This document shows, one piece after another, positions 1 to 10,445 of a stretch of 33,752 nucleotides of DNA. The translations under genes were made by a program, and so were the position numbers. The notes beneath the pieces were generated by a model, which worked only from the letters and a program-made list of their open reading frames with translations, searched no databases and was not told where the DNA came from. Origin of the DNA: Candidatus Woesearchaeota archaeon (GTDB taxonomy: Archaea; Nanobdellota; Nanobdellia; Woesearchaeales; JAADFO01). The stretch is from NCBI GenBank assembly GCA_016926055.1, contig JAFGPE010000046.1:1-33752 (forward strand), written 5' to 3'. Position 1 is the first letter of the stretch; each line of letters begins with the position of its first letter.

Positions 1-77
1 AAAATTCCCGAAAGGAATTTTTTAGTGCAACAGAATTTCACGCCAACCGCTCATCCGAGATGAGTGGAATTCCGTTG
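1..77. repeat. Palindromic (MITE/REP-like) element, truncated by the window edge
   Basis: Hairpins AAAATTCC(1-8)/GGAATTTT(14-21), GCTCATC(49-55)/GATGAGT(59-65) and imperfect CAACAGAATTTC(28-39)/GGAATTCCGTTG(66-77). Confidence 0.55.
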
Positions 78-7102: not shown

Positions 7103-7498
7103 ATGAAGGAAAAAACAGAGGCAGATTTTTTCGTGGAACTTAAGGATCCTGTTGAGTTGAGGAGAGCTGTACTTGAAGCTTCAAAGAAATCGATAAGGTT
7201 TTTGCAGAATTACGAGAGCATAAAGAAAAACAGGACAGAGAAAAGCGAGGAGATTGAGAGATTAAAGGCCACAATAAAAGAGATAAGTCTCCTTTTCACA
7301 AGACTGAAGGCAGAGCTTCCTAAAGTGAAGGACGTTCTGCCGCCTGAGTTCAAGAAATTCTTCCATTCAAGACCTGTAACTGTAAAAGTCGTAAAGCCGC
7401 CCATTGCCTCGGTTGAAATAAGACCTAGGGAGAAGGAGATAAATAAGCTGGAGCAGGAACTAAAGGACATTGAATCGGAGCTTGAAAGGCTAAGTTAA
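7103..7498 (+). CDS. Coiled-coil hypothetical protein
   Basis: SD GAGGT; begins with a similar FFVEL motif followed by heptads, and ends in a short coiled coil (LEQELKDIESELERL). Confidence 0.8.
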   Translation: MKEKTEADFFVELKDPVELRRAVLEASKKSIRFLQNYESIKKNRTEKSEEIERLKATIKEISLLFTRLKAELPKVKDVLPPEFKKFFHSRPVTVKVVKPPIASVEIRPREKEINKLEQELKDIESELERLS

Positions 7499-7542
7499 TT
7501 CTTTAGATTTTTTCACCTCATTGATTTTCTTCAGCAGTAACA

Positions 7543-7550
7543 TTTTTAAA
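7543..7550 (+). promoter_or_regulatory. TATA box of the first tRNA-Leu locus
   Basis: TTTTTAAA about 24 nt upstream of 7574, the start of the duplicated tRNA 5' end. Confidence 0.55.
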
Positions 7551-7573
7551 ACAGAGTTAATTCTCCTTGCATC

Positions 7574-7628
7574 GAGGGGATGCCGGAGAACATCTGGCGT
7601 TCCGGCGCCGGTGTCTGGACTGGCCAAA
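7574..7628 (+). repeat. Duplicated tRNA-Leu 5' fragment containing a 32-nt BHB-type intron (7589-7620) at position 15/16
   Basis: GAGGGGATGCCGGAG[insert]TGGCCAAA equals the first 23 nt of the tRNA at 7631 with one mismatch. Helix CCGG(7583-86)/CTGG(7615-18), bulges AG^A and AC^T, inner stem ACATC/GGTGT. Confidence 0.75.
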
Positions 7629-7630
7629 AT

Positions 7631-7794
7631 GCGGGGATGCCGGAGTGGCCAAACGGGATAGATTTCCGACGTCAAGGCGCTAGAAAATCCAAACTCAAGT
7701 TATTGAGTGATGAGGTCCTAAAAGGATCGATGAAATGCTCTATGGGCCATCTATTGGCTTAGTGCCTACGGGGGTTCAAATCCTCCTCCCCGCA
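7631..7794 (+). tRNA. tRNA-Leu(CAA) with two introns: 7662-7692 (30/31) and 7700-7748 (37/38)
   Basis: Acceptor GCGGGGA/TCCCCGC with A73, long variable arm, T-arm GGGGG-TTCAAAT-CCTCC. Intron 1 BHB: GGAT/ATCC, bulges AG^A and AA^A, inner TTTC/GAAA. Intron 2 BHB: CTCA/TGGG, bulges AG^T and CC^A. Spliced arm is ATAGA-CTCAAGA-TCTAT. Confidence 0.88.
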
Positions 7795-7815
7795 TATTTT
7801 TAATTTCCTAGAAAG

Positions 7816-7823
7816 TTATATAA
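7816..7823 (+). promoter_or_regulatory. BRE/TATA promoter for the structured leader and LAGLIDADG gene
   Basis: GAAAG-TTATATAA, predicting a start near 7847-7850. Confidence 0.55.
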
Positions 7824-7857
7824 ACAAATCTTTAACTATTTTTTGTTATCAACGATA

Positions 7858-7955
7858 TGTCAAAAACCACCGGTCAAAGACCAGCGGCATGTTGCTTCGT
7901 AAGCGACAGAAGATGTAATGGTTTTTGACACCTCGGAATTCTACGAATGACCGGT
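7858..7955 (+). ncRNA. Structured leader or element upstream of the LAGLIDADG gene
   Basis: Perfect 12-bp IR TGTCAAAAACCA(7858-69)/TGGTTTTTGACA(7919-30) enclosing hairpins GGTC-AAA-GACC and TGTTGCTT-CGT-AAGCGACA. Additional 8-bp pairing ACCGGTCA(7869-76)/TGACCGGT(7948-55). Confidence 0.65.
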
Positions 7956-7962
7956 AGTTTAA

Positions 7963-8724
7963 ATGAATAGTCAAAAAATAGAAAATAAAGATTTGTTAAT
8001 CAATTCGGAAATTGCTGAACTCTTAGGTGTGTTTATAGGAGATGGCTGGATTGAAAGGGATAAAGACGCACTTTACATAACTGGAAGCCAAACTGAAGAT
8101 AAAGATTATTATGATTATCACCTAGGACCATTATTTTCTAAGCATTTCTCAAAGGTAACTCCTAAGCAATTTGATTATTGGGGAGTTTATGGAATTGTAA
8201 CCTATAAAAAAGAAGCCATTAACAAAGCAATAAACCTCGATTTCCAAGTGGGACGCAAGTCTTTAGTTACAAAAATTCCTCGATACATAATGGATGCAGA
8301 AAATAAAGATATTTTTAAAGCTATTTTAAGGGGTTTATTTGATACAGATGGTTGTTTTTGGTGTGAAAAGTCAAGAGCTAAAACATCTACAAAATGGAAA
8401 AGAACACACAATTATCATCCTGAACTGAGGATTACTTCGTGTTCCAAGATGTTATTAGAGCAAGTTCATTGCTTATTAGACAGACTAGATATTGATTCTA
8501 AGGTTATTCAAAAAAGCAGAAGGGGTTTCAAAAGCGGAAGAAACGTACATGATTCTTACGCTTTGAATATCAGAAAGATTGAGGAAATTGAAAAATGGTT
8601 CAAGATTATTGGAACTAATAACCCCCGACATAAAACAAGATGTGGTGTCTGGAAGAAACTCGGTTATTTGCCATCAAACACAACAATGGAGATGAGGAAA
8701 AAGTTGTTAAACGTTAATAGGTGA
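7963..8724 (+). CDS. Free-standing two-motif LAGLIDADG (DOD-type) homing endonuclease
   Basis: Motifs AELLGVFIGDG and AILRGLFDTDG, both with the terminal acidic residue. No intein splicing blocks. Visibly more AT-rich than flanking housekeeping genes. Confidence 0.9.
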   Translation: MNSQKIENKDLLINSEIAELLGVFIGDGWIERDKDALYITGSQTEDKDYYDYHLGPLFSKHFSKVTPKQFDYWGVYGIVTYKKEAINKAINLDFQVGRKSLVTKIPRYIMDAENKDIFKAILRGLFDTDGCFWCEKSRAKTSTKWKRTHNYHPELRITSCSKMLLEQVHCLLDRLDIDSKVIQKSRRGFKSGRNVHDSYALNIRKIEEIEKWFKIIGTNNPRHKTRCGVWKKLGYLPSNTTMEMRKKLLNVNR

Positions 8725-8827
8725 GGTCCCATCCCCTCAGTTTACGAATGGGATGAATTAATCATTGTTTCCCGTTAAACTGGGCCATTGAAAATAGAGG
8801 ACAAGAAATTTTTTAAGCAATAATTAT

Positions 8828-8835
8828 TTAAATAA
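8828..8835 (+). promoter_or_regulatory. TATA box of the second tRNA-Leu locus
   Basis: TTTAAATA about 25 nt upstream of 8860. TTAATTCTC lies just before the duplicated 5' end at both tRNA loci. Confidence 0.55.
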
Positions 8836-8859
8836 AACCGAAACACTATTAATTCTCTT

Positions 8860-8922
8860 GCGAGGATGCCGGTAGTGGAAATCTGTGATTTCCGGACCGT
8901 CATCTTCTCAACCCGAAGGTCT
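8860..8922 (+). repeat. Duplicated tRNA-Leu 5' end (13 nt) followed by a structured insert
   Basis: GCGAGGATGCCGG at 8860-8872 is identical to 8923-8935. It is followed by hairpin GGAAATC-TGT-GATTTCC, then CCGGAC, and CATCTTC complementary to GAGGATG. Confidence 0.7.
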
Positions 8923-9025
8923 GCGAGGATGCCGGAGCGGCCAATGACAGAAATGTCGGCCATACGGGCTAGGTTCAGGGCCTAGTGGCTTAGTGCCTAC
9001 GGGGGTTCGAATCCCCTTTCTCGCA
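8923..9025 (+). tRNA. tRNA-Leu(CAG) with a 19-nt D-loop intron (8945-8963)
   Basis: Acceptor GCGAGGA/TTCTCGC with A73; anticodon arm CTAGG-TTCAGGG-CCTAG. Intron motif is helix GGCC/GGCC, bulges AA^T and AT^A, inner GACA-GAAA-TGTC. Splicing restores GGCCAAACGG as in the first tRNA. A T-run follows. Confidence 0.93.
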
Positions 9026-9066
9026 TTTTTTCTTTAGTAACCTATTTAAATAAGTATAAACTCTAG

Positions 9067-10445
<1,379 letters not shown>

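Follow-up and report, generated by a model that had tools for sequence, protein, structure and literature searches.

The multistem structure at positions 7858 to 7955 is most probably (roughly 75% probability) one copy of a family of small, noncoding, hairpin-rich mobile repeats of Woesearchaeota-type archaea. It lies directly in front of a LAGLIDADG nuclease gene in the window, by which we mean the whole stretch of 33,752 nt that was analyzed; the genome of the window (here G000) comprises 1.62 Mb in 172 contigs. The initial annotation had proposed that the structure is either an RNA partner or translational silencer of the nuclease, or an end of the Y1 transposase type that mobilizes the nuclease gene as a passenger. 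It named two observations that speak against a link to the nuclease, namely, that the element is a dispersed multicopy repeat and that the nuclease homologs lack a similar structure upstream. Both were made, and on these terms, both proposed functions are refuted and the idea of a mobile-element end was sound.

Reading of the sequence revealed all parts of the fold that had been annotated. The closing stem pairs TGTCAAAAACCA (7858-7869) with TGGTTTTTGACA (7919-7930) over 12 bp without a mismatch, and the two inner hairpins are GGTC-AAA-GACC at 7872-7882 and an 8-bp hairpin at 7890-7908. Furthermore, ACCGGTCA (7869-7876) and TGACCGGT (7948-7955) are exactly complementary, and the 3′ arm of this competing 8-bp pairing stops 7 nt short of the ATG at 7963. 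RNAfold predicted for the top strand the same stem and hairpins as those read directly from the letters, with a minimum free energy (MFE) of −31.1 kcal/mol versus a shuffle mean of −21.4 (SD, 3.3; z, −2.97) that was matched by none of 200 shuffles. The opposite strand was nearly as stable (−29.2; z, −2.73; 1 of 200 shuffles), and a fold of 7858-7962 with DNA parameters gave −20.0 (z, −4.39; 0 of 200). We conclude that the multistem structure is real as described. That the fold in the window is beyond chance follows also from the covariation of the closing stem and the first hairpin over 38 distinct related copies (see below). By eye, the competing 8-bp pairing is kept in part of the related copies only (G000 C9 and G076 L080) and is absent from G000 C57 and most other copies.

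The copy number in G000 was determined by BLAST with positions 7795-7965. Four places matched; the three besides the window are in contigs C9, C40, and C57, and their copies are 80 to 91% identical to the window copy. At least four further copies or copy ends are present in G000. One of them is at positions 1-83 of the window itself, where BLAST detected on the plus strand the 3′ part of another full-length copy, since the contig begins inside the repeat; positions 1-40 match the tail of C57 at 97.5%. Position 141 is the start of a small ORF that has the orientation of this copy. Thus, the count of genomic copies revealed a dispersed multicopy repeat, which speaks against the proposed link to the nuclease. 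Contigs of G000 break within the repeat, the copies of which are 96 to 100% alike: C9 and C57 end inside it, and BLAST places the continuation of both at the C80 head, the C116 tail, and window positions 1-40. Thus, the full G000 element is noncoding and approximately 225 nt long, and it is left at three or more 3′ exits and entered at two or more 5′ entries (again 96 to 100% alike). Two copies in G000 are short: that in the window and that in C40, a solo 5′ domain of 68 nt.

The family is not restricted to G000. BLAST with the C57 copy detected pieces in 8 of 41 relatives, G000 itself counted. A covariance model named R1 was built from 13 aligned 5′-domain copies (73 positions, 18 pairs). R1 scored the window copy with 71.9 bits (E value, 2e-11) and, at an E value of ≤1e-3, detected the family in 35 of the 150 genomes sampled from the order of G000 (Woesearchaeota-type DPANN archaea), a tally that takes in the unpublished genomes G123 and G134; the other 115 were without it. 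The number of R1 copies per genome ranged from 1 to 28 (G041, 28; G078, 21; G012 and G079, 17 each; G139, 16; G150, 15; G004, 14). An exact degenerate pattern matched at least 120 places in a collection of species-representative genomes. Among the 80 matches listed, 47 were in records titled Woesearchaeota, 6 in records titled Nanoarchaeota/Nanoarchaeia, and 23 in metagenome-assembled genomes labeled "uncultured Methanosarcinales," with one each under the titles Pacearchaeota, Gammaproteobacteria, "uncultured archaeon," and "Archaeon BMS3Abin17." Viral contigs gave no exact hit with the degenerate 5′ pattern.

The elements share a modular anatomy. The 5′ domain consists, in this order, of TGTCAAAAA, a 9-bp hairpin of the form CCAC-NNN-TCAnAGA-NNN-GTGG, CATG, a variable hairpin, and GGTGGTTTTTGA(G)CA; its long stem, TGTCAAAAA.../...TTTTTGA(G)CA, is closed around the conserved and the variable hairpin. 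In the 3′ domain, another long stem surrounds variable hairpins and the conserved hairpin, which is present here for the second time. The arms of this stem change in step (CAGAAATATACC/GGTATATTTCTG, CAGAATTCCAC/GTGGAATTCTG, CAGTATACCACC/GGTGGTATACTG, and CAGGAATACCA/TGGTATTCCTG), and the domain terminates in ...GACAT or ...GTTGT. The element ends are inverted repeat-like, with TGTCA(A/G)AAA... at one end and ...TTTCTGACA at the other. Among the variants are a minimal form of 46 nt (G004 L025), forms without the second hairpin, 5′ domains that stand alone, and long mosaics with additional hairpin modules. These modules recur in distant families; in G150 L294, the module order is the same as in the G000 copies. 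The length of 134 distinct elements was 44 to 273 nt (median, 153), and no ORF was found in the elements. All 38 copies examined lie between ORFs, and most adjoin unrelated genes, such as those for ribosomal protein L37Ae, DapA, and 5S rRNA. Their orientation to genes is random: the right neighbor was on the same strand in 16 cases and on the opposite strand in 14, and the left neighbor in 13 and 16, respectively. An unrelated short repeat family was observed in G104 (at least 12 copies) and, with more copies, in G251; it was seen at L073 (G104:C12), at approximately 1710-1880 of the query.

Structural conservation was analyzed with 41 R1-aligned hits, of which 38 were distinct; loci of unpublished genomes were left out, the alignment was model fitted, and the sequences are related. 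In the 38 distinct copies, 94.6% of the cells were paired, versus 88.4% in shuffles, and 7 pairs were changed on both sides, versus 3.9 in shuffles. The covariation score was 0.206 versus 0.086 and was reached by none of 500 shuffles. When the partners were slid as a control, 34 to 47% of the cells paired. The two middle pairs of the conserved hairpin take GC, AU, CG, and UA, and one pair of the closing stem is AU in 29 copies and GC in 9. A larger sample of 95 distinct copies gave the same covariation pattern. Furthermore, full elements were predicted to fold into a two-domain shape, with z-scores of −7.4 and −5.8. The variable hairpin P3 is weakly structured, and its loops are diverse; for these reasons, it was dropped as evidence for an RNA.

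Comparison of orthologous sites points to mobility. An element in G004:C37 is missing in the congeneric G139:C2, where the flanks are 3 nt apart, and an element in G139:C5 is missing in G004:C38; the flanks of G004 and G139 are 73 to 82% identical. Two further absences have untidy or diverged junctions (G139:C20 versus G004:C26 and G104:C12 versus G251:C93). No duplicated flank was detected at the two clean or the two untidy presence/absence sites. One orthologous site is filled in both species by different family variants, and three further comparisons revealed rearrangements or a site occupied in both species. Because no autonomous relative or transposase was found, mobility rests on the two clean and two untidy sites, at which a precise deletion is indistinguishable from an insertion. 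The two clean empty sites already hold T-T-A-A(-A) exactly at the 3′ junction of the element. The 3′ flank of 134 distinct elements reads W-T-W-A-A (T at position 2 in 87%, A at position 4 in 81%, and A at position 5 in 82%), the commonest flanks being TTAAA (32 elements), ATAAA (13), and TTTAA (13); the 10 bases 5′ of the same elements are only T/A rich. The exact termini are uncertain by 1 to 3 nt, and the element in G004:C37 has an extra TCC on the left. The idea that the 3′ end together with its TATA-like flank donates a promoter was rejected, since gene orientation is random and TTAA(A) is already present in the empty sites.

These features allow the window copy to be delimited. It is a short-form copy of approximately 102 nt on the plus strand (7858-7959), composed of a 5′ domain and a short 3′ hairpin. 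The 5′ domain (7858-7930), as delimited by RNAfold and by covariation in the 38 distinct copies, comprises the closing stem P1 (7858-7869/7919-7930), the conserved hairpin (7867-7887), which is degenerate in this copy, CATG, and the variable hairpin (7890-7908). It is followed at 7931-7959 by the short hairpin CCTCGGAATTC-TAC-GAATGACCGG and a terminal GTAGT, as read from sequence and fold. This part contains the 3′ arm (7948-7955) of the competing pairing and is homologous to positions 74-103 of the C9 and C57 copies. From the ...GTTGT/TTAAA junctions of other copies, we infer that the 3′ limit is at approximately 7959 (...CCGGTAGT), directly followed by TTAAATG. The TAAAT at 7960-7964 of the plus strand, which overlaps the start codon, reads TTAAA together with T7959, as in the junction profile of the 134 elements; this TTAAA-like sequence is likely the preexisting target.

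A TATA box-like sequence, TTATATAAA, is located on the plus strand at 7816-7824, 33 to 34 nt 5′ of the insertion. Judging from its sequence, it is probably the original promoter of the LAGLIDADG gene, the orthologs of which have TATTTAAA 24 to 45 nt 5′ of their ATG. Without the element, the window reads TTATATAAA, 33 nt, TTAA, and ATG, which is the layout of the orthologs. Because removal of the element restores this layout, we place the insertion between the promoter and the start codon, where the 102-nt copy would have entered about 4 nt 5′ of the ATG. If the old promoter is still active, the element would be a structured leader of the LAGLIDADG transcript. Such a leader and weaker translation are plausible consequences of the insertion. 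Since the copy landed between the TATA box and the ATG, any effect on expression is incidental; damping of translation, if any, would be a side effect and not an evolved partnership. Rather than carrying the LAGLIDADG gene as a passenger, the element is an insertion in front of it. A longer form with the LAGLIDADG ORF as cargo and a degenerate 3′ end at 8740-8775 was also considered, but its likeness was loose and by eye only, with no BLAST match, and the short form was preferred.

The gene downstream (7963-8724, plus strand) encodes a free-standing LAGLIDADG homing endonuclease of 253 amino acids with two motifs (Pfam PF14528 at 6.8e-11 and PF00961 at 1.3e-4); a PDB sequence search with the protein gave no match at an E value of ≤0.01. 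In the vicinity of pyrimidine biosynthesis genes, the ORF is flanked by two intron-bearing class II tRNA genes, at 7631-7794 and 8923-9025. Both were found with Rfam, whereas ARAGORN detected no tRNA at all in the window. The first, on the plus strand, is a tRNA-Leu(CAA) gene with introns (Rfam tRNA, 38.3 bits), the anticodon of which was read by hand with the aid of the short-intron ortholog L039. All eight close orthologs of the nuclease with enough upstream flank are, like the gene in the window, located directly 3′ of tRNA-Leu(CAA); Rfam detected the upstream tRNA in L035 only (31.1 bits), and the tRNAs of the other ortholog loci were read by eye. Thus, the LAGLIDADG gene looks like a free-standing homing endonuclease cassette that travels with the tRNA-Leu(CAA) gene.

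Several further observations were made around these genes. By eye, a duplicated 3′ tRNA piece of 12 to 50 nt follows five orthologs (L032, L036, L037, L038, and L040). In the window, a 5′ piece of a second tRNA allele precedes the intact tRNA, with GAGGGGATGCCGGAG at 7574-7588 and then TGGCCAAA at 7621-7628, and TCCCCTCA is present at 8732-8739, after the stop of the LAGLIDADG ORF (all by eye). Both tRNA-Leu genes have noncanonical introns. The tRNA-Leu(CAA) gene apparently has two, one within the anticodon stem and one at 37/38, the latter with a CTCAAGTTATTGAG hairpin and GTGATGAGG/CGATGAA boxes, and the CAG tRNA-Leu gene (8923-9025) has a 23-nt intron in the D loop. The 5′ end of the second tRNA recurs exactly over 13 nt (GCGAGGATGCCGG) at 8860-8872, 50 nt upstream of that tRNA; this copy could be a gene conversion scar, a leader, or another intron. 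Finally, CACTGG(A/T)CA occurs once or twice 12 to 16 nt before the TATA box of the orthologs L033 to L040. It resembles one arm of the hairpin of the repeat and is not enriched in G000 (29 matches).

Homologs of the LAGLIDADG protein were present in 111 of 301 sampled genomes, a tally that takes in the unpublished G123, G134, G185, and G246. Nine of them are close orthologs (52 to 67% identity), and upstream of none of these nine was a multistem structure detected; a plain promoter region with CACTGG(A/T)CA and a TATA box was found instead. Of 30 LAGLIDADG loci, only the window and G012 L059 had an R1 copy within 1.5 kb, and in G000, the LAGLIDADG gene is single copy, unlike the repeat. Element-bearing genomes had LAGLIDADG genes more often than the others (22 of 35 versus 32 of 115 in a raw tally that ignores kinship and includes G123 and G134), and the same was true of Y1 genes (19 of 35 versus 37 of 115, also raw and ignoring kinship). 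Since the Y1 transposases show a similar excess, that of the LAGLIDADG genes may reflect mobilome-rich genomes. That the structure evolved as an RNA partner or translational switch of the nuclease is extremely improbable in view of the orthologs, the 28 of 30 loci without a nearby copy, and the unrelated genes beside most copies, even though it abuts the start codon, its alternative pairing ends close to the ATG, and L059, another LAGLIDADG locus, has a copy approximately 800 nt upstream.

The supposed Y1-type end with a LAGLIDADG passenger fared no better: the gene is outside the element, and none of 30 Y1 loci had the hairpin or the element ends within 1.5 kb (a lone 10-mer was found at one locus). 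The single IS200-type Y1 transposase gene of G000 (C165:4482-4829, L061; 74 bits), its only TnpA, is flanked by GC-rich hairpins unrelated to the repeat. No Y1 match at an E value of ≤1e-5 was obtained in G150 (100% complete, 15 copies), G012 (17 copies), or G079 (17 copies), and no TnpB above the cutoff was detected in the five genomes with the highest copy numbers or in G000; three of these five have neither Y1 nor TnpB. These results make it unlikely that the family is a PATE-type derivative of IS200/IS605, for which a Y1 (HUH) transposase would use two subterminal hairpins on one strand and move the element by "peel and paste" beside a fixed pentanucleotide. The inverted repeat-like termini (TGTCA...TGACA) also argue against it, as PATEs are said in excerpts of PMC3119063 to lack them. 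Such a derivative would be of a kind described in the same excerpts, and it would account for the same hairpin near both ends in the same strand sense (approximately 9 nt from one end and 15 to 20 nt from the other), the absence of target duplication, the conserved TTWAA on one flank only, the longer unassembled G000 repeats that end in the same hairpin (see below), and the somewhat higher frequency of Y1 genes in element-bearing genomes, kinship being ignored. Thus, of the annotated likeness to an IS200/IS605 end, the hairpin end of a mobile element and the shared traits stand, but the Y1 link was not found. Quite improbable, too, is the alternative that the copies are genes or cis elements for a structured RNA with a cellular role and that their spread is secondary. 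Compensatory changes in three helices across many families, very low folding z-scores, conserved and strand-specific loop bases (TCAnAGA), and some GNRA-type loops (5 of 20 tetraloops) would fit a cellular RNA. So would the excess of G-T over A-C in the model-fitted alignment (43 versus 10), although this sample is biased, 80 of its 96 loci having been collected with a pattern in which part of the hairpin is fixed. When only the conserved hairpins were counted, A-C (33) exceeded G-T (18) on this strand, and by MFE, neither strand folded better overall (top in 73 elements, bottom in 59; P = 0.056); because these tests conflict, no folding strand was assigned. A cellular RNA is also hard to reconcile with the random orientation to genes without a conserved upstream promoter, the patchy distribution (115 of 150 genomes without the element), the variable presence at orthologous sites, the common truncated and mosaic forms, and the lack of an Rfam family.

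We therefore return to the mobile repeat as the preferred reading. The elements would be moved by a protein acting in trans that recognizes the shared hairpin, probably on single-stranded DNA. Longer unassembled multicopy repeats were also observed in G000, with right ends at the ends of C43, C62, C151, and C166 and left ends at the end of C1 and where C3 and C23 start. The conserved hairpin is present in the termini of these repeats as well, 15 to 22 nt from the boundary, and their interiors are missing from the assembly. BLAST for the interior gave contig ends only within G000 and matched the hairpin only over 301 genomes, and two exact-pattern scans of metagenome contigs gave no match. These longer repeats are the best candidates for an autonomous partner. 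On balance unlikely, but conceivable, is that DPANN archaea have an undescribed transposition system, of which CCAC-NNN-TCAnAGA-NNN-GTGG would be the mark. In this system, an enzyme that recognizes the hairpin and is neither a Pfam-recognizable Y1 nor TnpB would move both the small repeats and the longer hairpin-ended repeats of G000 and place them, without duplication, just 5′ of TTAAA-like sequences.

These results remove the idea of an RNA partner or switch for the LAGLIDADG nuclease and that of a Y1-borne nuclease passenger, and they define a widespread, well-structured repeat family in Woesearchaeota-type genomes. The family breaks assemblies and can pass for regulatory RNA. As it inserts beside TTAAA-like (TATA box-like) sequences, it can land between promoters and genes. 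The R1 covariance model provides a simple means to mask or count the elements. Identification of the mobilizing enzyme would provide a further transposition system for a group of archaea in which mobile elements have scarcely been charted.

Comparison with known systems places the family as follows. The annotated resemblance to HEARO/IscB omega-RNA (RF02033), a stem around small hairpins, is loose and visual only. An Infernal search against Rfam gave no match of any kind on the element, HEARO and IS605-associated families included, neither in the window at the gathering score nor in 7400-9100 at an E value of ≤10, and the same was true of five G000 loci with repeat ends and five loci with full-length elements. 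In contrast to HEARO, the element has no adjacent IscB or TnpB but stands alone in intergenic DNA, and in the window, its neighbor is a LAGLIDADG gene. With classical MITEs, the family shares that it is short, noncoding, intergenic, multicopy, and structured, with inverted-repeat termini; it differs in that target site duplication is absent at the two clean empty sites (G139:C2 and G004:C38) and that the search for a parent yielded no insertion sequence with matching ends. According to excerpts of a MITE survey, the density of MITEs is high in one genome of a Woesearchaea (PMC11602168); a 2026 survey of archaeal insertion sequences contains no mention of Woesearchaeota (PMC13343696). We found no description of the present family in the main texts of the open-access literature searched.

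The ends of IS200/IS605 elements (e.g., IS608) have subterminal hairpins on one strand, and these elements insert without duplication beside a short fixed sequence. Similarly, the family has a hairpin near both ends on one strand, no duplication, and a flank motif on one side. It differs in its inverted repeat-like termini, in the lack of an associated Y1 or TnpB gene, and in that its conserved flank is 3′ of the strand whose loop reads TCAnAGA.

The closest descriptions are those of SMR-A/B and PATEs of Haloquadratum walsbyi, which, according to excerpts of PMC3119063, are transposase-free elements of approximately 50 to 200 nt with many intergenic copies, presence/absence differences between relatives, and no target duplication. 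In these excerpts, SMRs are approximately 110 bp long, with terminal inverted repeats unrelated to known transposons and "enigmatic" movement; in PATEs, the palindromes close to the two termini resemble each other, and the elements are traced to IS605-type transposons, whereas no IS605-type parent was found for the present family. The size, copy number, intergenic location, lack of a transposase, and lack of duplication described there are common to the present family, which is likened to them by description and not by sequence, its host being DPANN and not Halobacteria; the SMR trait of being unrelated to known transposons was compared here against Y1 loci only. Unlike the elements in the excerpts, the present ones combine inverted repeat-like termini with the same subterminal hairpin at both ends and have two stem-enclosed domains, swapped-in variable hairpins, and a TTAAA-like 3′ flank. 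On the basis of these excerpts, the SMRs are the nearest descriptive class. Thus, the family is new, but its kind, that of small mobile repeats without a transposase, is known; its structural conservation is unusually clear.
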